Shown here piece by piece: positions 29,702 through 39,455 of a stretch of DNA of 64,000 nt. The notes beneath the pieces are model-generated. The model saw only the letters and a program-made list of their open reading frames with translations, was not told where the DNA came from and did not search any database. The first letter of the stretch is position 1. The number at the start of each line of letters is the position of its first letter. A program made the translations under genes and the position numbers. Source of the stretch: an archaeon GW2011_AR15 (GTDB taxonomy: Archaea > Nanobdellota > Nanobdellia > Woesearchaeales > GW2011-AR15); contig CP010425.1 in the NCBI GenBank assembly GCA_000830295.1, positions 672,001 through 736,000 of the forward strand. Reading direction: 5' to 3'.

Positions 29702-30448
29702 CTATTCAAGCAGCAGCATAGAGGCCATTATGGCGATTCCCGCCACTATCCCAAGCAGCTGAAGGGCTGATTTCCTGACTTCTGTCTCTTTATGCAGTTC
29801 AGGTATAAGGTCGGAAGAAGCAATATATACAAAACCGCCTGCAGTTACGGGTATCAGCATCTGCACAAATCCTTCAAGGCTGCTGCCTATTACAAGCACA
29901 ATAAGCGCTCCGATTACTGAGGTGAGAGCGGAAAGGAAATTGTAGAAAAGCGCCTTTGCCGTTTTCATGCCGCTGTGAAGGAATATGGAAAAATCCCCTA
30001 TCTCCTGGGGGATCTCGTGGAGGACAACTGCCAGTGTTGTGGCAAACCCTATCCTGAAATCTATCAGGTATGAGCCTGCAATTATCATCCCGTCTATAAG
30101 GTTGTGAAGGGCATCTCCCACAAGGTTCATGAATGCAACAGGATGCGGATGATGCTTAGATGTCTCGATATGACAGTGCCTCCAGTGTATGAATTTCTCC
30201 AGAATAAAAAATATGAGGACGCCTCCAAGCAGGGAGAGTGAAACCTGAAGCGTGAAGCCGGTCTCTTCTATAATCTCAGGGAGCAGATGTATAAACGCAT
30301 CTCCCAGCAGGGCTCCTGTTGAGAAGCTTACAAGAAGCAATATCATTCCTTTCAGCCTTTCCTTTTTCAGGGCCAGTGTCAGAACCCCAGCAAAAGAAAC
30401 AAGGCTTACCAATACTACGCTTGCCAGAGATGCAATCCACGCGTCCAT
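29702..30448 (-). CDS. ZIP family metal transporter
   Basis: HLLPE, HWRHCH loop, DALHNLIDG, HEIPQEIGDF; start MDAW. Confidence 0.93.
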   Translation of the reverse strand: MDAWIASLASVVLVSLVSFAGVLTLALKKERLKGMILLLVSFSTGALLGDAFIHLLPEIIEETGFTLQVSLSLLGGVLIFFILEKFIHWRHCHIETSKHHPHPVAFMNLVGDALHNLIDGMIIAGSYLIDFRIGFATTLAVVLHEIPQEIGDFSIFLHSGMKTAKALFYNFLSALTSVIGALIVLVIGSSLEGFVQMLIPVTAGGFVYIASSDLIPELHKETEVRKSALQLLGIVAGIAIMASMLLLE

Positions 30449-30512
30449 TTTGGCTCTTATGCAGTTGCAGGAAGTATATAAATTTATATAGTAAGATGGC
30501 AACAGGAAAAAT

Positions 30513-30689
30513 ATGTGTATCTTATGCATGGGTTCAGTCTGCACTAATGTGGGGTTGTGCCAGCCGGTCATATACAGCTATTTCAGCACCCTGCAGTATT
30601 TCATTGCCCTTGGGATTGGGGCCGCTATTGGCATAACTTACAAGGCAAGAGATAAAATAAAGAATTTTTTCAGGGGATTAAGAAGATAA
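30513..30689 (+). CDS. 58-aa Cys-rich single-TM small protein MCILCMGSVCTNVGLCQ...
   Basis: Read manually; TTTATATA 30 nt upstream; 4 Cys, TM helix, basic tail. Confidence 0.6.
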   Translation: MCILCMGSVCTNVGLCQPVIYSYFSTLQYFIALGIGAAIGITYKARDKIKNFFRGLRR

Positions 30690-31847
30690 AACATCCCTGA
30701 CTATCTTCACAACCTCATCAACATCCTTCTTTGTAAATATCAATGGTGGAAGGAACCTCAGCACTGTCGTACCTGTAGGAATTATTATGACGCCTTTGTC
30801 CTGCAGGTCTTTTGCGTATTTTGTGTTCTTTGTTTTCAGCTCTACTGCAATCATCAGCCCCAGGCCGCGGACTTCCCTTATTACAGGAGATTCAATTGTT
30901 CTCAGCTGTTCTATGAAATATTTGCCCACAGAAGCAGCATTCTCCAGTATCCTGTGCTTTTCAATATAGTCAAACGTTGCAAGCGACGCAGCGCATACAA
31001 GAGGGTTGCCCCCAAAAGTGTTTGTATGGGCTCCTGAAAATAATTTTGAGGAGATTTCCTCTGTTATCAGCACTGCTCCCATCGGAAGGCCGGAGGCGAT
31101 TCCCTTTGCCATGCATATCATGTCAGGCTCTACATTGAAATGCTCTATTGCAAACAGTTTTCCTGTCCTTCCCATTCCTGACTGTATCTCGTCAATAACA
31201 AGCAGGGCATTGTTCTGTTCGCAGAGCTTTTTCACCTTTACAAAGAAATCTTTGCCAGGAATCCTGATTCCGCCCTCTCCCTGTATGGGCTCGAGGAAAA
31301 CAGCTGCAGTCTTTTCGCTTATAACTTCTTTTAATGAATCAATATCATTGAATGAGAAGTGCTTAACATCCTGAAGCAGGGGCTCATAGGGCTCATTGTA
31401 TTTTTTCAGGGTGCTTGTCAGGCTCAGTGCTCCGATTGTCTTTCCGTGGTAGCCCATCTTTGCAGCAATGATCTCAGTCTTTCCTGTTGCCAGCCTTGAG
31501 AACTTTATGGCAGCCTCGACAGATTCAGTTCCCGTGTTGCTGAAAAAGACTTTTGTAAGATTCTTAGGAGAGACTTCAATTAATTTCTTGGCTATGAGCG
31601 ACCTCTTGTCATTTGTAAAAGAGCCATGCAGGTTTGTTATTCTTTCAAGCTGCTCTGCAACCGCCCTGTTTATCTCAGGGATATTATGCCCGAGTATGTT
31701 GACTCCCATGTTTGAGAAGCAGTCATAATATTTTTTCCCTGTTTCGTCATATACATAGATTCCTTTTCCCTTTACTATTGTCAGTCCCCTGCTTCCGTAA
31801 GTTGGGGCAATGTATTTTCCTGCCATTTCCTCATAATCCATTTTCAA
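30678..31847 (-). CDS. lysJ: [LysW]-aminoadipate semialdehyde transaminase (class III PLP)
   Basis: EPIQGEGG, DEIQSGMGRTG, AKG, TFGGNPL; operon context. Confidence 0.9.
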   Translation of the reverse strand: MKMDYEEMAGKYIAPTYGSRGLTIVKGKGIYVYDETGKKYYDCFSNMGVNILGHNIPEINRAVAEQLERITNLHGSFTNDKRSLIAKKLIEVSPKNLTKVFFSNTGTESVEAAIKFSRLATGKTEIIAAKMGYHGKTIGALSLTSTLKKYNEPYEPLLQDVKHFSFNDIDSLKEVISEKTAAVFLEPIQGEGGIRIPGKDFFVKVKKLCEQNNALLVIDEIQSGMGRTGKLFAIEHFNVEPDMICMAKGIASGLPMGAVLITEEISSKLFSGAHTNTFGGNPLVCAASLATFDYIEKHRILENAASVGKYFIEQLRTIESPVIREVRGLGLMIAVELKTKNTKYAKDLQDKGVIIIPTGTTVLRFLPPLIFTKKDVDEVVKIVRDVLSS

Positions 31848-32634
31848 TCACAGTTCCTTTTCCTTCTAATGCATCTTTAACAGGATGCTCTGTCCTGCCG
31901 TCTGAAATCAAAACCCTGCATTTTCCTGATTCAAACAGCTTCCTCAGGCTAAGCATCTTTCTTTTCATCCTGTCATCAACCTGCGCTTCCCTTTCTTTAA
32001 GCTCATCAGCAGACATTTTCTTCACCAATGATTTCGGGTCATCCCTGTTTTCCAAAAAGCCGGGGGCTTCTATTAATTGTATGACAGTATCTGCTTTCAT
32101 AGTGTCCTTCAGCACATTTACTATGTCATCATTCTCTGAGTTTATGGCAAAATTATTCTCGTCAATTATTGGTATGCATAAGACCGGGGTATAGCCGTTT
32201 TCCAGCAGCAGGTCCAATAGCTCTTTGTTTATCTCCTTTGGCTTGCCGGAGAAATCCCTTACAATTTTCTGCTTTGAGCCTTCTTTTATCCTTATGCCTG
32301 TGTTTCTTTTTCCCCTTATCAGCCTGCCGTCAATCCCTGAAAGCCCGACAGCATTGACTCCGTGCTGCTGGAATATCTCAACAATCCTCTTGTTTCTTAA
32401 GCCTGAGTAAGCCATCATTATGCTGTCAATTGCACCCCCATCTGAATAGACACTGGAATATCCAGAAACAGACTTAAGCACTTTCTTTTCTTTTCCAAGC
32501 TCTTTCATCAGCTGATCGCGGTGGTAATTGGCGCCGTGGACAACAATGACCTTTTCTTTAAGTCCTGCAATATCTTCTGCAACTCCATCTACATTAATGT
32601 CCTTCCCTCCGCCGATTTTTATTATCATAACCAT
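31831..32634 (-). CDS. lysZ: [LysW]-aminoadipate kinase
   Basis: IKIGG, VVHGA, SVSGYSS, GLSGIDG, MKRK. Confidence 0.92.
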   Translation of the reverse strand: MVMIIKIGGGKDINVDGVAEDIAGLKEKVIVVHGANYHRDQLMKELGKEKKVLKSVSGYSSVYSDGGAIDSIMMAYSGLRNKRIVEIFQQHGVNAVGLSGIDGRLIRGKRNTGIRIKEGSKQKIVRDFSGKPKEINKELLDLLLENGYTPVLCIPIIDENNFAINSENDDIVNVLKDTMKADTVIQLIEAPGFLENRDDPKSLVKKMSADELKEREAQVDDRMKRKMLSLRKLFESGKCRVLISDGRTEHPVKDALEGKGTVIENGL

Positions 32635-32637
32635 TTT

Positions 32638-33276
32638 CTACCACACCAGTATTGCATTATTCGGCACATTGCTCCAGTCAGTCTCTCCGGGATACGGGTC
32701 TGAGCACACGAGCAGGTCATGGCCTGTTTCCTTGTAGTGCATTGTGTAATACTCCTTGTCTTCCTCGAATGTCGTGTTCAGGTAGACATTCTCTTTTGTT
32801 GCGACAATTATATTCATGCCCCTTATGTGCCTGCTCTTCTTCTTTATCAGGGAGACGCCCTTTACAAATGCCTGGATTGTATCGCCGTTGTCAAACCTTT
32901 TGAAGAAGTTGAAAATCTTCTCAGCGCCTATCCTCCCTTCCTCTTTTATCCTCACTCCCTGCAGCTCTCCGTTGAATATGAAAACATACTTCGGGTCGTG
33001 GAAAGGCATGTTGTTTTCTATGAAAATCCCCTCGTCCTTGAAAGCGCTCCTTGCATGGGCTACAAGCATCTTTGTCTTCCCGAACTGCGAGAGGTCATCT
33101 TTCCAGACAGGGTTGATGTTCTTGTAGTGCTTCCATTCATTTTTTTCATCAAGGTATGAGCAGCCCCAGCCGTGCCCCTGGTATTCTTTGCTGTTTTTTG
33201 AAATGGCTGCGAAATTCTTAAGATGGGTCTCAATATCAAACACATTCTCTGATTTCACTAAAAGCAATCTGCACAT
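32638..33276 (-). CDS. Class II glutamine amidotransferase-like Ntn hydrolase (EgtC/Dug3/YafJ type)
   Basis: Start MCRLL (Cys2 nucleophile), QGHGWG, AHARSA, NNMPF, FIFNGEL, CSDP. Confidence 0.85.
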   Translation of the reverse strand: MCRLLLVKSENVFDIETHLKNFAAISKNSKEYQGHGWGCSYLDEKNEWKHYKNINPVWKDDLSQFGKTKMLVAHARSAFKDEGIFIENNMPFHDPKYVFIFNGELQGVRIKEEGRIGAEKIFNFFKRFDNGDTIQAFVKGVSLIKKKSRHIRGMNIIVATKENVYLNTTFEEDKEYYTMHYKETGHDLLVCSDPYPGETDWSNVPNNAILVW

Positions 33277-33286
33277 TTCAGCCTCT

Positions 33287-34324
33287 TTATACAGGATGCA
33301 ATCCAGGGAATTCAAGCCCTGCTGTCTCAGGGAGCCCGAACATTATATTCATGCACTGGACTGCCTGGCCTGCTGCCCCTTTCATCAGGTTGTCTATCGC
33401 GCTCATGACAACCAGCCTGTTGGAGCCTTCATCAATCTCAAAACCTATGTCGCAGTAATTTGTCCCCCAGAGTATTTTTGGCTCAGGATACCTGTAGATA
33501 CCTGTCTTTTCCTTTACAATCCTTATGAAAGGCTCATCTCCGTATTCCTTCCTGTAAATCTTCCAGATGTCCTTGTCCTGCAGCTTTTCTTTCAGGAAGA
33601 CATGGCCTGTCATCAGGATTCCCCTCACTAAGTCTGTGCTTGTTGCGCTGAATCCGAAATATCCGGTGTTAAGCTCCTGCATTATCTCGGCCATGTGCCT
33701 GTGGCCTGTCGGCCTGTAGCTTCTAAGCACGTCTTTTCTTTCAGGGTGGTGGCTTCCGGGATTCTCCTTATTGCCTGCTTCAGATGAGCCGCCTTTTACC
33801 TCGACAACTGTTTTTGCTGCATCAATTAAATTATTCTTGTATAACGGGTAAAGTCCGAGTATTGTTGCAGTCGCATTGCATCCTGCGGCAGCCACATAAT
33901 CTGCTTTCTTTATCTCTTCCCTGTGAAGCTCAGGGATTCCGTATACAAATTTCTTCAAAAGCTCTGGCCTGGGATGGTCAAACTCATACCATTTTTTGTA
34001 ATCCTCTTTATTCCTCAGCCTGAAATCGCTTCCCTTGTCAATGACTTTCTTTGCCTTTGACATTATGAAGTCTATTCTCTCAGAGCTTACCTTGTGAGGA
34101 AGCCCTACAAATATTACGTCAACATTTTCAAGCTCTTTCATGCTGCTGAATTTCAGCATTGTCTTTCCCCTTAAATTGGGATGGACCTGATGCACGAACT
34201 TTCCTGCATTGCTTTCTGATGTTGCCTGCACTACCTCGACATTCGGATGTCCAAGCAAAAGGCGAAGTGCCTCTCCGCCCACATATCCGGACGCTCCTAC
34301 AATTGATGCCTTAATCTTTTCCAT
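33287..34324 (-). CDS. lysY: [LysW]-aminoadipyl-phosphate reductase
   Basis: GASGYVG, AGCNAT, SHHPER, GHRH, IDNLMKGAAGQA. Confidence 0.93.
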   Translation of the reverse strand: MEKIKASIVGASGYVGGEALRLLLGHPNVEVVQATSESNAGKFVHQVHPNLRGKTMLKFSSMKELENVDVIFVGLPHKVSSERIDFIMSKAKKVIDKGSDFRLRNKEDYKKWYEFDHPRPELLKKFVYGIPELHREEIKKADYVAAAGCNATATILGLYPLYKNNLIDAAKTVVEVKGGSSEAGNKENPGSHHPERKDVLRSYRPTGHRHMAEIMQELNTGYFGFSATSTDLVRGILMTGHVFLKEKLQDKDIWKIYRKEYGDEPFIRIVKEKTGIYRYPEPKILWGTNYCDIGFEIDEGSNRLVVMSAIDNLMKGAAGQAVQCMNIMFGLPETAGLEFPGLHPV

Positions 34325-35159
34325 TCTTTGCCACCTTCAAAACATAATCAATCATCTTCTCTGGAATATTGACTCCGGTAGCTGTAATTGAATTCCTGAA
34401 TTCCATTGTGTGGTTTACTTCATTTACAACCAAGCCTTTCTTTGTCTCAAAAAGGTCAATCGCAAGTATCCCTCCTCCGACTGCCTTTGCTGCCTTCCTG
34501 CATATCTCATCAAGCTCTTTTGTAACAGGGCAGTTGCTTGCTTTTCCCCCTCTTGCTGTGTTGGTTATCCAGTGCTCTGAGCTCCTGTAGATTGCGCAGA
34601 TTGTTTTTCCGTCAACAACAAAAGCCCTTATATCCCTGCCCGGCTTTTCCACATATTCCTGTATGTAGAATACTGAATGCTGGACTCCGCCAAGCACTTT
34701 CTTGTGCTCTATCACGGCCTCTGCTGAGTGCCTGTCTGTTATCTTTGAGACAAGCCTTGCCCAGCTTCCGACAACCGGCTTTATCACGCATGGGTAGCCC
34801 ATCTTCTCAACTGCCTCAAGCGCAGTCTCAGGGGTGAATGCCATAATTACTTTTGGAGTCGGAATCTTGTTCTCTGTTAGTATCCTGCTGGTTACAAACT
34901 TGTCCCCGCAGTTTTCTGAAACAGCACTCCTGTTCACAACAGGAATCCCGTAGCCTTCAAAAATTTTTGAGATGTATAGTCCCCTGCTGTAGGATACGGA
35001 CCTTTCAAGTAAGACATCTATCTTAAAATTGTTTTTTGAAATGTCAAAAAATTCCGAGCCGTCATCTATCTTGACAACTTCCACATTTCTTTTTCTCAGC
35101 TCCTGAAGAAGCAATTTTTCTTCTGGCCTTATTATTGAGTAAAGGAATCCTACTTTCAT
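34311..35159 (-). CDS. lysX: Alpha-aminoadipate--LysW ligase (ATP-grasp)
   Basis: KPVVGSWAR, EHKKVLG, QEYVEKPGRDIR, WITNTARGG, NHTMEF. Confidence 0.95.
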   Translation of the reverse strand: MKVGFLYSIIRPEEKLLLQELRKRNVEVVKIDDGSEFFDISKNNFKIDVLLERSVSYSRGLYISKIFEGYGIPVVNRSAVSENCGDKFVTSRILTENKIPTPKVIMAFTPETALEAVEKMGYPCVIKPVVGSWARLVSKITDRHSAEAVIEHKKVLGGVQHSVFYIQEYVEKPGRDIRAFVVDGKTICAIYRSSEHWITNTARGGKASNCPVTKELDEICRKAAKAVGGGILAIDLFETKKGLVVNEVNHTMEFRNSITATGVNIPEKMIDYVLKVAKNGKD

Positions 35160-36157
35160 TTTATCCTCCGTGCGACTGCATCGCCTGCCTGCTCTGTTGT
35201 CAGCTTTCCTCCTAAATCCTGTGTTACATCCCCTTCTTCAATTGCTGACATCACAGCATCCCCGACTTTTTTGGCTGCTTCATCTTCTCCCAAAAATTCA
35301 AGCATCAGCTTTGCAGCCAGTATTGCTGCAGCCGGGTTTGCTACATTCTTTCCTGCATATTTAGGCGCAGAGCCATGAACAGGCTCAAAAACTGCCTTTT
35401 CTTTTCCTATATTTCCAGAGTATGCCAGCCCCAACCCTCCGACGAGCATTGATGCCTCGTCGCTCAAAATATCCCCGAACATGTTGGTTGTCACAATGAT
35501 TTCAAACTGGCCGGGGTTTTTTATGAGCTGCATTGCGCAGGCATCCACAAGCATCTCCTGCATCTCAATAGCCGGATATTCTTTGGCTATCTCCAGGGCA
35601 ACTTTCCTGAACAGCCCGCATGTCTCCCTCAGCACATTTGCCTTGTGGACAACAGTGACTTTCCTGAGGTTTTTTTCTCTGGCAAGCTCAAACGCATACC
35701 TGATAATCCTTTCACTTCCCTTTCTTGTGATGATCATCTCTGTTACTGCTTTGTTGCCGTTATCCTCTACACGCTCAACTCCTGAATAAAGGTCCTCTGT
35801 GTTCTCTCTGACAATATACATGCTTATCCCCTTCTGCGAAATCTCATGCGGGAAGGACCTGCACGGCCTCAGGTTGGCGTAGAGGTCAAAGTGTTGCCTC
35901 AGCCTTAAAATTGCTGAGGAGTAATTTTCGATATTCGGCGGGGTTGTCACAGCTCCGAACAGCGTTGCGTCTGCCTTCTCAACTTTCTTGATTGTTTCTT
36001 CAGGCAGGGCATCGCCTTTTTTCAGGTAGCAGCCGTATCCTATTTCCCCGTAGGTGAATTCAAGCTCAAGAGGCAGGGCTTTCAGTACCTTTACTGCCTG
36101 CTCAACAACTTCAGGCCCTATTCCGTCTCCCGGCAGAACGCAGATTCTGTATTTCAT
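35156..36157 (-). CDS. Homoisocitrate dehydrogenase
   Basis: PGDGIGPEV, RENTEDLY, NMFGDILSD, EPVHGSAP; operon context. Confidence 0.88.
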   Translation of the reverse strand: MKYRICVLPGDGIGPEVVEQAVKVLKALPLELEFTYGEIGYGCYLKKGDALPEETIKKVEKADATLFGAVTTPPNIENYSSAILRLRQHFDLYANLRPCRSFPHEISQKGISMYIVRENTEDLYSGVERVEDNGNKAVTEMIITRKGSERIIRYAFELAREKNLRKVTVVHKANVLRETCGLFRKVALEIAKEYPAIEMQEMLVDACAMQLIKNPGQFEIIVTTNMFGDILSDEASMLVGGLGLAYSGNIGKEKAVFEPVHGSAPKYAGKNVANPAAAILAAKLMLEFLGEDEAAKKVGDAVMSAIEEGDVTQDLGGKLTTEQAGDAVARRIK

Positions 36158-36645
36158 TGCAGCTCCTCTATATTGTGGCTCTTCAGGAAATTCACAATGC
36201 CTCCTGCGTTCACTATCTTCAGCACGAATTCAGGAAGCGGCTTTGCCTGGAATTCTTTCCCGTTTGTTATGTTTCTTATTATCCCTGTTTCAAGATTGAC
36301 ATCAAACTCATCCCCTTCTTGAACATCATCATAGACATCGCATTCAAGTATTGGCAGGCCTATGTTGATGGCATTCCTGAAAAATATCCTTGCATATGAT
36401 TTTGCGATTATGCACTTTGCCCCAGAGCCCTTTATTGCAATGGGCGCGTGCTCCCTTGATGAGCCGCAGCCGAAATTATCCCCTGCAACAATCACATCTC
36501 CCGGGTTTACAGTCTTTGCATAATCCGGCTTTACCTCGCAGAACACATTTTTTGCCAGCTCTTTTTCGTCTATTGTGATGTTGTATCTCGCAGGTATGAT
36601 TACATCAGTGTTCACGTTGTGCCCGAATTTCCAGACTTTGCCCAT
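36154..36645 (-). CDS. lysU: Homoaconitase small subunit
   Basis: NTDVIIPARY, NFGCGSSREHA, ARIFFRNAINIG. Confidence 0.88.
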   Translation of the reverse strand: MGKVWKFGHNVNTDVIIPARYNITIDEKELAKNVFCEVKPDYAKTVNPGDVIVAGDNFGCGSSREHAPIAIKGSGAKCIIAKSYARIFFRNAINIGLPILECDVYDDVQEGDEFDVNLETGIIRNITNGKEFQAKPLPEFVLKIVNAGGIVNFLKSHNIEELQ

Positions 36646-36646
36646 T

Positions 36647-37900
36647 TTATGCCCTCATGTATTTCCTTGGATCAGTTATCTTTCCTTCTATTGCCGTTGC
36701 AGCAGCTGCAGCAGGGCTTCCCAGATATATCTCAGCCTCTGCGCTTCCCATCCTGCCCACGAAATTCCTGTTCATTGTTGTGAATGCCTTTTCTCCCGGC
36801 GCCAATAATCCTGCGTGCCTGCCGATGCATGCCCCGCACCCGGTTACTCCGATTGTGACGCCGGCATCCTGCAGGATTTTTACAAGCCCTTTGTCTATCA
36901 TTTTCTGCAGCACATTCCTGCTTGCAGGATTTACCAGTACCCTTGTGAACCTGCTGACTTTCTTTCCTTTGATTATGTCTGCAAATATCTCGATGTCCTC
37001 ATACCTCCCGTTTGTGCATGTTCCGAGGAAAACCTCATCAATCGGAAGCCCCTCGACATCCTTCAGAGGCCTTGCATTATCAACATCGGGATGGCATGCA
37101 ACCTGGGGCTCTATCTCATCAACATTGATTTCTATCTCCCTCTCGTACCTTGGGTTTACAGGCACTATTTTTTCAAACGGTCCTTCTGCCTTTGTCTCAT
37201 TCTCCAGGAATTTTATTGTTGTGTCGTCTACCGCTATCAGCCCGCATTTTGCCCCGATTTCAGTTGACATGTTCGGGAAGATTATCCTTTCGTGCATAGG
37301 CAGCCTGTCAATGTATTCCCCTGAAAACTCAACGCTCTTGTATGTTGCGCCGTCCATCCCAAGCTTTCCGGCAACGTAGATCATGACATCCTTTGCATAG
37401 CTGCCCGGCAGGTTTTTTCCTGTCAGCTTTATGTGTATTGTCTCAGGGACCCTGAACCATGTCTTCCCTGATATCCATGCCACTCCGATCTCTGTTGAGC
37501 CGAAGCCGACCCCGAAGCAGCCGAAAGCCCCGTAGGTATTGCTGTGGCTGTCTCCTCCGATGATGATTTTCCCAGGAGTCACGAAGCCCTCTTCAATCAT
37601 GACCTGGTGGCAGATTCCCTGGTGGTAGAAATTCTTTATACTCTGCTCTTTCATGAAATCAACTATTTTCTTCTGGGTCTCGGCAGCCAGCACATTTGGG
37701 GCAGGATATGCATGGTCAAAATGGATGACAACCCTGTCCTTGTCCATGATCGGCTTCCCTATATCCCTGAACGCCTTTATTGCCAATGGTGAGGTGTTGT
37801 CATGCGTCATCATGTAATCTACATCTACCATGACTATCTCGCCTGCCTTTACAGGCCTTCCGAGCTTCCTTGAAAAAATTTCTTCTACAAGCGTTCCCAT
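36647..37900 (-). CDS. lysT: Homoaconitase large subunit
   Basis: GICHQ, DSH, GTCTNGR, GCGACIG, NRNF.GRMG. Confidence 0.9.
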   Translation of the reverse strand: MGTLVEEIFSRKLGRPVKAGEIVMVDVDYMMTHDNTSPLAIKAFRDIGKPIMDKDRVVIHFDHAYPAPNVLAAETQKKIVDFMKEQSIKNFYHQGICHQVMIEEGFVTPGKIIIGGDSHSNTYGAFGCFGVGFGSTEIGVAWISGKTWFRVPETIHIKLTGKNLPGSYAKDVMIYVAGKLGMDGATYKSVEFSGEYIDRLPMHERIIFPNMSTEIGAKCGLIAVDDTTIKFLENETKAEGPFEKIVPVNPRYEREIEINVDEIEPQVACHPDVDNARPLKDVEGLPIDEVFLGTCTNGRYEDIEIFADIIKGKKVSRFTRVLVNPASRNVLQKMIDKGLVKILQDAGVTIGVTGCGACIGRHAGLLAPGEKAFTTMNRNFVGRMGSAEAEIYLGSPAAAAATAIEGKITDPRKYMRA

Positions 37901-37901
37901 T

Positions 37902-39290
37902 TTATCCCTTTCCGTTTATGCCGTTATGCTTTTTCAGAACTATCTTTGTGCTGGTCTGCTTTATCCCAGGTATTGTCCTGAGCTCCTCTAGAAGGTTGTT
38001 GAGCTCCGCAGTGCTGATTACCTCGGCGTAGGCAGAGATATCATGCTCTCCTGTAATCTCAAAGACGCTCTGTATGTACTTGAAATTCTTTAAGTGCCTG
38101 ACAACAGAAGTCGTATACACATCTGTCTCGACCGATATCAGGATAAGCGCATTTATGTTTTTTGGTATCACTTCATTTGTCTTGCCTGTTACTCTTTCAG
38201 CTATCTCGAGTATGTCTGAATCATGGAGAATCTTCCTCTCGTCCCCGATATGCTTTATTTCCGCTACAATAAGCTTCAGCTCGTCATCGCTTACTTTTAT
38301 GCTGTAGTCGTCAAGCTTTGACTGCACTGCCCTTTTTCCTGTGTACTTGTCAACAATGATTTTCCTTTCCCTTCCTATCAGTGCAGGGTCGAATGCCTCG
38401 TATGTCTTCGGGTTCTTCAGGACCCCGTCAGTGTGCACTCCAGACTTGTGCGAGAATGCGTTCTGGCCTGTTATAGGCTTGTTGGGAGCTATGAAAAACC
38501 CTGAAACTTTTTCCACATATGATGACAGCCCCGGGAGATACCTGATTTTGTATCTTGTTTTTTTCTCAAGTATGTGATACGACATTATGACTTCTGAAAT
38601 ATCAGGAACGCCTGTCCTTTCACCGAGCCCGTTCACGGTCACGTGGATGCAGTTTGCCCCTGCCCTTATCCCTGCCATTGCGTTTGCCAATGCCAGCCCA
38701 AAATCATTGTGGCAGTGGACATCCAGCTCGCAAGGGAACAAGGAATCCTTAAGCTCCTTCACCTGGTTGTAAAATAAATGCGGCTGCATTATCCCGAGAG
38801 TGTCTGCAACGCTTATCCTGTCAGCTCCTGCCTTTATTGCAGTGTTGCATGCTTTTGCAAGGAAATTTAATTCTGTCCTTGTAGCATCCTCAGGCGTGAA
38901 CCTGACCTTCATGCCTTTTTTTCTTGCATAGGCGACATGCTCTTTTATTATCTGCAGAGCTTCTTTTCTTGTCTTTTTTACTTTTGTCTGCAGGTGGATA
39001 TCTGAGGTCGGGTATAATATCACTATCCTGTCAACCCCGCATTCCTTTGCCTTGTCAATGCCTGCTTTTGTTGCAAGCGAATGCGCCAGTATCTCAGCCT
39101 TCAGGCCAAGGGAAGCTATCTTTTTTATTGCCTCATAGACTTTCGGGGAGACGCAGGGGTCGCCCGCCTCTATCATGTCCACCCCGATTTTATCGAGAAG
39201 CCTGGCTATCTCTACTTTTTCATCAACTGTAAAATTTACGTACGGGGTCTGCTCCCCGTCCCTTAAAGTAGTATCAAGAATCCTGAGCAT
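37902..39290 (-). CDS. hcs: Homocitrate synthase with C-terminal RAM (Lrp/AsnC-type) domain
   Basis: DTTLRDGEQ, HCHNDFG, NGLGERTG, HKSGVH; VFEITGEHDI RAM motif. Confidence 0.9.
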   Translation of the reverse strand: MLRILDTTLRDGEQTPYVNFTVDEKVEIARLLDKIGVDMIEAGDPCVSPKVYEAIKKIASLGLKAEILAHSLATKAGIDKAKECGVDRIVILYPTSDIHLQTKVKKTRKEALQIIKEHVAYARKKGMKVRFTPEDATRTELNFLAKACNTAIKAGADRISVADTLGIMQPHLFYNQVKELKDSLFPCELDVHCHNDFGLALANAMAGIRAGANCIHVTVNGLGERTGVPDISEVIMSYHILEKKTRYKIRYLPGLSSYVEKVSGFFIAPNKPITGQNAFSHKSGVHTDGVLKNPKTYEAFDPALIGRERKIIVDKYTGKRAVQSKLDDYSIKVSDDELKLIVAEIKHIGDERKILHDSDILEIAERVTGKTNEVIPKNINALILISVETDVYTTSVVRHLKNFKYIQSVFEITGEHDISAYAEVISTAELNNLLEELRTIPGIKQTSTKIVLKKHNGINGKG

Positions 39291-39455
39291 CTACTCTCCC
39301 CAGTCTTCCTCTTCCTCGGGTGCAAGAACAAGCGCAACAGGATCAACAGATGCCACCTCTAAATCTGCTCCGCAGTCAGGGCAGGTAAGTATCTCCCCTT
39401 CTTCAACATCACTCGCGGTCTGCACATCTGCACCGCACTCAATACATTCAGCCAT
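39291..39455 (-). CDS. lysW: Amino-group carrier protein LysW
   Basis: CxxC..CxxC and C-terminal EDWGE; AGGAGG SD before ATG 39455. Confidence 0.97.
   Translation of the reverse strand: MAECIECGADVQTASDVEEGEILTCPDCGADLEVASVDPVALVLAPEEEEDWGE

Follow-up and report, generated by a model that had tools for sequence, protein, structure and literature searches.

A class II glutamine amidotransferase-like hydrolase as a candidate replacement for LysK in the LysW operon of the archaeon GW2011_AR15 and its relatives

In LysW-dependent lysine synthesis the carrier protein LysW is loaded via the γ-carboxyl of its C-terminal Glu. The enzyme described for release of the product is LysK (TIGR01902, M20 family; [amino-group carrier protein]-lysine/ornithine hydrolase), and a passage of PMC12998189 names LysK as the hydrolase. 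Here we describe a LysW operon in the archaeon GW2011_AR15, lying within a 64,000-nucleotide stretch of contig CP010425.1 (positions 672,001 to 736,000, referred to as the window), which lacks lysK and encodes between lysY and lysZ a stand-alone class II glutamine amidotransferase (GATase)-like protein of the N-terminal nucleophile (Ntn) hydrolase type, called Ntn below. The gene (positions 32638-33276, minus strand) codes for 212 amino acids (aa) beginning MCRLLL. Comparative evidence of four independent kinds, with a fifth that is new, supports the interpretation that Ntn is, quite likely, the release enzyme of the LysW pathway, a non-homologous replacement of LysK that would cleave the γ-amide via a Cys2 thioester and would also deamidate LysW proteins ending in Gln. 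The proposed reaction and pathway position are those of LysK, although LysK is a metallopeptidase and Ntn a Cys hydrolase, and the two are unrelated in sequence and fold.

Class II GATases act on free glutamine, whose α-amino group is bound by the Asp of a D-S-E motif; in PurF and GlmS an Asn-Gly pair forms the oxyanion hole and an Arg binds the substrate α-carboxylate. EgtC is a stand-alone protein of about 210–230 aa with an N-terminal Cys that hydrolyses a γ-glutamyl amide without an amidotransferase partner, as we propose for Ntn, and its PDB structures include a complex with a γ-glutamyl substrate. The YafJ-type proteins and fungal Dug3, which takes part in glutathione (γ-glutamyl) degradation, belong to the same clan as Ntn and occur in unrelated contexts. 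A parallel to LysW itself is Pup, according to passages of PMC8599861 a small acidic carrier linked via the γ-carboxyl of its C-terminal Glu, with a Glu or Gln end depending on the species; the same passages describe a single enzyme, Dop, that removes Pup by γ-isopeptide cleavage and also deamidates those Pup proteins whose gene specifies a Gln at the C-terminus. A full-text search of the literature, subscription literature aside, returned no paper that ties a GATase-like or Ntn hydrolase to the LysW pathway, and a passage of PMC3249071 mentions LysX and Ntn hydrolases separately.

The GW2011_AR15 genome, 96.77% complete, consists of one contig of 1,157,790 bp, in which we found no match to the LysK model TIGR01902, to Pfam Peptidase_M20, or to Hist_deacetyl; a tblastn search with six Chloroflexota LysK proteins gave a best match of only E = 0.51. 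An earlier note, made from the letters of the window, had proposed the gene as a substitute for a missing LysK, and the genome-wide search agrees with it in yielding no lysK/argE-like M20 gene. That note had also taken LysK for the only step missing from the operon; LysK is indeed absent, but so is the 2-oxoadipate aminotransferase (LysN), with two class I/II aminotransferases encoded elsewhere in the genome. The host codes for ornithine carbamoyltransferase with an adjacent paralogue (G000:C1:67257-69521), its single ArgC/LysY is the one in the operon, and neither ArgJ nor a diaminopimelate decarboxylase above cut-off was found in the genome. With ornithine carbamoyltransferase present, ArgJ absent, and a single ArgC/LysY, lysine and ornithine both seem to depend on the operon and its release step. 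The gene content suggests that the operon probably serves both products, as in some other archaea, that the host seems to make ornithine and arginine through it, and that Ntn probably releases both lysine and ornithine.

The earlier note's idea that Ntn and LysK are mutually exclusive was borne out in the samples searched. LysK scores above the TIGR01902 cut-off in none of 65 distinct Ntn-bearing genomes (a set of 40, seven more from the window's phylum, 14 more Bacteroidota, the Dehalococcoidia genome G341, and three Desulfobacterota), the counts being de-duplicated, as some assemblies (G002/G140 and G005/G091) seem to have been entered under two handles. Among LysW-bearing Chloroflexota without Ntn, by contrast, LysK is above cut-off in 127 of 133 and matches at E ≤ 1e-30 in 131; the four sub-cut-off matches are fragments, and the two genomes without a LysK match have only partial LysW matches that fall under the LysW cut-off. 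G341 is the only one of the 134 LysW-bearing Chloroflexota with Ntn, whereas Ntn is present in all nine LysW-bearing genomes found among 301 of the window's phylum and in all 16 found among 401 Bacteroidota. Of 14 named control genomes, four (Thermus, Deinococcus, Haloferax, and Sulfolobus) have LysW, and it is these four that have LysK. LysK is often near lysW, at a distance of about 10 kb or less in approximately half of 71 Chloroflexota whose coordinates were read. Ten of the 40 Ntn-bearing genomes have no M20-like match at E ≤ 1e-5.

Ntn also retains its position beside lysY and lysZ in different phyla. A one-genome-per-species scan identified 498 stretches encoding a relative of Ntn, and we kept the best 80 as loci; LysW-pathway genes adjoin Ntn in all 80. 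By their labels as deposited, Ntn-type loci come from Desulfobacterota, Bacteroidota/Ignavibacteria, Calditrichota, Gammaproteobacteria, SAR324, Binatia, a Dehalococcoidia metagenome-assembled genome (MAG), and small-genome archaea, and relatives of the small-genome host are labelled Woesearchaeota or 'Methanosarcinales'. Where there is enough flank to judge, LysY lies at most 1.1 kb upstream of Ntn (69/74 loci) and LysZ at most 1.1 kb downstream (73/76), with LysW further upstream in 52 of 57 and LysJ downstream in 58 of 63. The exceptions are split operons, in which Ntn stays either with lysZ-lysJ or with lysW-X-Y. All-against-all clustering of the 2,418 open reading frames (ORFs) of the 80 loci identified LysX, LysY, Ntn, LysZ, and LysJ as widely recurring, together with a homocitrate-synthase-like gene in 23 loci and antisense shadow ORFs. 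With pathway neighbours in 80/80 loci and no other widely conserved gene, Ntn is an integral part of one kind of LysW operon. We also considered whether another conserved hydrolase accompanies Ntn, and rejected this: none emerged from the clustering, and a Pfam scan of representatives of 10 of the 30 largest neighbour clusters found no peptidase, the identities being acyl-CoA dehydrogenase, SNF2 helicase, ETF, ABC-transport components, an AMP-binding enzyme, and the homocitrate-synthase-like protein.

Several loci depart from the common arrangement. In L063, L072, and L076 (Gammaproteobacteria/Thiotrichales) the operon is split, with Ntn beside lysW-X-Y and lysZ-lysJ either 8 kb off or outside the locus; LysW ends in Gln in L063 and L076. 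The operons of L002, L034, L041, and L068 contain a second LysX paralogue (45–53% identity to the window LysX), which may be an ArgX-like ligase for glutamate. Both L032 (the Dehalococcoidia MAG, G341) and L023 (a Calditrichota MAG) fall inside the Desulfobacterota clade of the Ntn tree, a placement indicating either that the operon was transferred horizontally in its entirety or that an error was made in binning. The archaeal genome G296 has a second, distant Ntn paralogue (57.6 bits; G296:C1:372565-373140) on a contig other than the one with its LysW operon.

Ntn represents a tight-knit, highly conserved protein family. In a 90%-clustered database 2,926 proteins match it at E ≤ 0.001, and the best 120 of these are almost all 209–225 aa long, share 58–68% identity with the query (its own cluster aside), and are found in bacteria as well as archaea; a set of 1.84 billion representatives clustered at 50% identity contains only 344 matches at E ≤ 0.001, of which 62 reach E ≤ 1e-30. 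The family is not named by any curated Pfam or NCBIfam model. The window protein narrowly misses the gathering cut-off of Pfam GATase_4 (PF13230; 22.1 bits vs 23), a label that some relatives carry in precomputed form, and public records list members as 'class II glutamine amidotransferase', 'glutamine amidotransferase', or 'hypothetical'. In an alignment of 62 diverse members, spanning down to 26% identity, the invariant residues are W58, R76, P91, N102, G103, G114, and G117, and at least 90% of the sequences have C2. The Cys directly follows the start codon in all 80 related loci, from which we take the ATG at 33276 as the start of the window gene; an alternative TTG start would extend the ORF to 33315 and overlap lysY.

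An AlphaFold2 model of Ntn (pLDDT 96.6, pTM 0.92) predicts the α-β-β-α glutaminase fold of the class II GATase superfamily. A Foldseek search of the PDB gave probability 1.00 for EgtC, 3MDN, 1TE5, PurF, and GlmS, with EgtC ranked first (4ZFJ, 4ZFK, and 4ZFL; TM 0.83, TMq 0.79–0.84, E = 2e-13, 15–17% identity), and the YafJ-type structures (3MDN and 1TE5; TMq 0.67–0.68) and the PurF/GlmS glutaminase domains (TMq only 0.63–0.72) less similar; by sequence, the best PDB match is 3MDN (E = 3.5e-4). The stand-alone class II GATase-like identity read from the letters by the earlier note is thereby confirmed at the level of the predicted fold. Ntn also has the core of the superfamily: a Cys after the initiator Met, the Arg of H-x-R (R76), and the Asn-Gly of the oxyanion hole (N102/G103), the last three residues being invariant in the 62 sequences. 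It differs from PurF and GlmS in having no synthase domain, fused or partnered, as members are stand-alone proteins of about 211 aa whose only conserved neighbours are LysW-pathway genes. Two longer proteins, each a single sequence (P0273, 446 aa, and P0190, 477 aa), join Ntn to an AA_kinase (LysZ-type) domain and may be rare natural fusions of adjacent genes or merged gene calls.

We tried and rejected three established assignments. Ntn is not an EgtC, with a score of 55 bits against the NCBIfam equivalog cut-off of 218.65 (TIGR03442); EgtD has no match in the genome at E ≤ 0.001, in a search that had no positive control, the cut-off being passed in not one of the 14 control genomes. Ntn differs from EgtC furthermore in its place in a LysW operon and in its proposed substrate, a protein-bound Glu with its α-amino group in a peptide bond. 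Nor does it belong with M20/LysK (TIGR01902, PF01546), as the window protein matches only the GATase_4 and EgtC families and has the Ntn fold, so that it is at most an analogue of LysK. A true amidotransferase is rejected as the main interpretation since there is no synthase domain and no pathway step that requires ammonia.

The position at which Ntn appears to depart from free-glutamine enzymes is that of the Asp of D-S-E. Alignment by hhalign with the N-terminal domain of the genome's own GlmS pairs C2 with C1, HARSAF with HTRWAT, and FNGE with HNGI, and is weak (probability 1%, E = 0.052); beyond its end, extended by eye, T-D-S-E of GlmS faces I-G-A-E of Ntn (G117-A118-E119). Provisionally, the invariant Gly117 would thus be the counterpart of the Asp. 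A Gly in place of the Asp would fit a glutamyl substrate with a peptide-bound α-amino group and a free α-carboxylate, as at the LysW C-terminus. The motifs that the earlier note had singled out as altered (GHGWG, FNGE, and GRIGAEK in the window protein) are present and are kept in 79, 78, and 76 of the 80 loci, respectively, but its reading of GAE as a changed DSE depends on the extension by eye of a weak alignment.

A further line of support for Ntn as a replacement of LysK, beyond those the earlier note had drawn on, comes from the carrier. In 12 of 81 Ntn-type operons LysW ends in EDWGQ, and in the other 69 in EDWGE; in contrast, the LysK-type Chloroflexota genes all end in EDWGE (80/80, with no EDWGQ), a difference with Fisher p = 3e-4 when kinship is ignored, related genomes not being independent. 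Gln-ended LysW was seen in Desulfobacterota, Bacteroidota/Ignavibacteria, and Gammaproteobacteria and also in the archaeal phylum to which the window belongs. When 58 Ntn proteins are placed on a tree, one Gln-ended row having been filtered out, the Gln state requires five changes, at least four of them forced by well-supported branches, and in six genomes the Gln-ended gene is the sole LysW match.

A LysW ending in Gln cannot be ligated before its γ-amide is hydrolysed. That amide is the same bond position as in LysW-γ-lysine, with ammonia replacing lysine, and a glutaminase-type Ntn hydrolase recognising the LysW terminus would carry out both reactions. If Ntn performs both release and deamidation, it would be understandable that a drift from Glu to Gln is tolerated solely in operons with Ntn, and not LysK, as the release enzyme. 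We lean, with some reserve, towards a Dop-like dual function, in which Ntn would release lysine and ornithine and would also activate Gln-ended LysW pro-carriers, as an independent parallel to Pup and Dop. Dop itself has a glutamine-synthetase-like fold and a nucleotide-dependent mechanism, unlike Ntn, and Pup marks proteins for degradation, whereas LysW carries biosynthetic intermediates.

The predicted active site suggests a mechanism. After removal of Met1, the thiol of Cys2 would attack the γ-carbonyl of the terminal Glu of LysW, with the oxyanion stabilised by Asn102/Gly103 and the free α-carboxylate of the terminal residue gripped by Arg76; the invariant Gly117, at the presumed Asp site of free-glutamine enzymes, would leave space for the Gly53-Glu54 peptide bond. 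Lysine (here probably also ornithine) would then depart, and the LysW thioester would be hydrolysed back to LysW-Glu. On Gln-ended LysW the same reaction would free ammonia and leave the carrier loadable.

Co-folding of Ntn (residues 2–212) with LysW gave a score of 0.48 (runs of 0.48, 0.48, and 0.53), and the best of three controls scored 0.00. Of 80 solved complexes 58 reach that mark, as do 2 of 110 mismatched pairs, counts that hold only roughly here because the alignments were ones built for this analysis. The three runs agree in at least 86% of contacts, with partner pLDDT of at least 77. Co-folding had been put forward in the earlier note as a check on the pairing, and the predicted complex stands clear of its controls but lends the pairing weak support.

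Other roles for Ntn have to be weighed against that of release enzyme. It might serve solely as a maturase, converting Gln-ended LysW to the loadable Glu form while another hydrolase releases the product, and both the occurrence of Gln-ended LysW only alongside Ntn and the ancestral glutaminase chemistry of the fold would suit such a role. However, Ntn and its catalytic residues are intact in the 69 of 81 operons whose LysW ends in Glu, where a function independent of Gln is needed, and in a genome without M20 proteins the release step would be left without a candidate; we regard this role as unlikely. Alternatively, Ntn could hydrolyse misloaded or dead-end LysW adducts and so recycle LysW, again with another enzyme releasing the product. 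A proofreading enzyme would fit the operon position and the expected specificity for LysW γ-amides just as well, but the LysK gap exactly where Ntn occurs would stay unexplained, and LysK-type operons do without such an editor (0/133), which makes this very unlikely.

An activity on free glutamine is what the public-record name 'class II glutamine amidotransferase' implies, and it is compatible with the glutaminase site, which retains its Cys, Arg, and Asn-Gly; Ntn would then supply glutamate for LysJ or LysX, or, as the amidotransferase half of an unrecognised pair, ammonia for another enzyme. We think this highly improbable, as there is no synthase domain (the only two longer proteins found, both singletons, are joined to the LysZ kinase family), ammonia is needed by no pathway step, the position of the α-amino-binding Asp appears to be an invariant Gly, and neither the LysK gap nor the Gln-ended LysW would be accounted for. 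Ntn enzymes go through an acyl-enzyme, and γ-glutamyl transfer is known for other Ntn hydrolases such as GGT, so a transamidase can also be imagined, in which aminoadipate or glutamate attacks the LysW thioester and release and reloading occur in one ATP-free step. Retention of the ATP-dependent loader LysX in the operons speaks against it and no data point specifically to transfer, leaving it, too, highly improbable.

Several observations weigh against Ntn as the release enzyme. Other M20 proteins, under the LysK cut-off, are found in 30 of the 40 Ntn-bearing genomes (the best at 96 bits), and an Ntn-bearing genome of the window's phylum, G163, has one of 117 bits; such proteins could in principle do the release in their own genomes. 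Two Desulfobacterota MAGs have a true LysW and neither Ntn nor LysK. Their LysW contigs are 2.9 and 5.4 kb long, and one of them reads LysW-X-Y-Z-J without Ntn, ending 32 nt after LysJ; the Desulfobacterota sample from which they come, drawn for a contrast inside that phylum, also included three more Ntn-type genomes and five with only partial LysW-like matches under the cut-off, and it contained no LysK-type control. The Ntn-type operon seems to have been passed between lineages as a single evolutionary unit, the Ntn tree mixing phyla, and the LysK-type genomes used for comparison come essentially from one phylum (Chloroflexota), with four named genomes in addition; for both reasons the 0-versus-127 comparison overstates independence.

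The molecular arguments have weak points too. The mapping of Asp to Gly117 is provisional, being taken from a match of E = 0.052 that ends before the motif, and the co-folding score is a weak kind of pass, without interface contacts: scores of 0.60 or less are represented among the passes by only seven of the 80 solved complexes, along with both passing mismatches. The many Lys and Arg residues that the earlier note thought suited to a bulky acidic partner did not hold up, and we dropped the argument from overall charge: LysW is indeed a very acidic protein (median pI 4.05, net charge −14), but the Ntn protein is not basic (pI 7.1, K+R minus D+E = 0; family median pI 7.8). Finally, the support comes from comparative genomics.

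The window operon as a whole is read from the minus strand in the order LysW, homocitrate synthase, HacA, HacB, homoisocitrate dehydrogenase, LysX, LysY, Ntn, LysZ, LysJ (Table 1). It is tightly packed, with overlaps between several other gene pairs; the gaps on either side of Ntn are 10 nt (from the end of lysY at 33287) and 3 nt (to the start of lysZ at 32634), and these, the location between lysY and lysZ, and the Met-Cys start agree with what the earlier note had reported.

Table 1. Genes of the LysW operon in the window, with the evidence for each assignment
Gene product	Position in window	Strand	Evidence
LysW carrier, zinc ribbon, ends EDWGE	39291..39455	-	Zn_ribbon_LysW 68 bits; TIGR01206 59.9 bits (cut-off 53.2)
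Homocitrate synthase with C-terminal Lrp/AsnC-type ligand-binding (RAM) domain	37902..39290	-	Pfam HMGL-like, HCS_D2, AsnC_trans_reg; TIGR02146 427 bits, above cut-off
Homoaconitase large subunit	36647..37900	-	Position; 41-77% identity to matching gene in related operons (tblastn: L007, L019, L060, L066, L070)
Homoaconitase small subunit	36154..36645	-	Position; identity to matching gene in related operons
Homoisocitrate dehydrogenase, Iso_dh family	35156..36157	-	Pfam Iso_dh 371.5 bits
LysX, ATP-grasp ligase loading LysW	34311..35159	-	TIGR02144 361.8 bits (cut-off 275.6)
LysY, ArgC-type reductase	33287..34324	-	TIGR01850 404 bits; sole ArgC homologue genome-wide
Ntn, stand-alone class-II-GATase-like protein (Cys2); candidate LysW-γ-Lys/Orn hydrolase and LysW-Gln deamidase	32638..33276	-	Fold, motifs, context
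LysZ, [LysW]-aminoadipate kinase	31831..32634	-	NF010659 247.6 bits (cut-off 223)
LysJ, ArgD-type aminotransferase	30678..31847	-	TIGR00707 430.8 bits, above cut-off; LysJ models 409 and 364 bits, below theirs

Some features of the neighbouring genes deserve comment. The LysW ORF can be read back to 39485, with a 10-residue N-terminal extension (MKKHRRENVK) that is not found in homologues, which start MAEC, and the true start is probably the second ATG, at 39455. The RAM domain of the homocitrate synthase occupies residues 383–453, a part that also matches the LysM regulator model (53.7 bits), and suggests amino-acid feedback control within the first enzyme. About 100 nt downstream of lysJ there is a ZIP-family zinc transporter gene (29702-30571, minus strand), on the same strand as the gene for LysW, a zinc-ribbon protein; this pairing is not kept in other loci.

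We consider Ntn a putative new enzyme family for a known reaction in a known pathway. If the assignment is true, it would close a hole in the pathway for a family encoded in 498 stretches of a species-level collection, in genomes that would otherwise be rated incapable of completing lysine synthesis and, for the small archaeal genomes, also that of ornithine and arginine. The last step of carrier-protein amino-acid synthesis would then have a second, unrelated enzyme family, and Ntn would be a rare case of a class II GATase-type fold with a protein-bound γ-glutamyl amide as its substrate. LysW, in the genomes where it ends in Gln, would be a biosynthetic carrier that is encoded, like Pup, in an inactive form.

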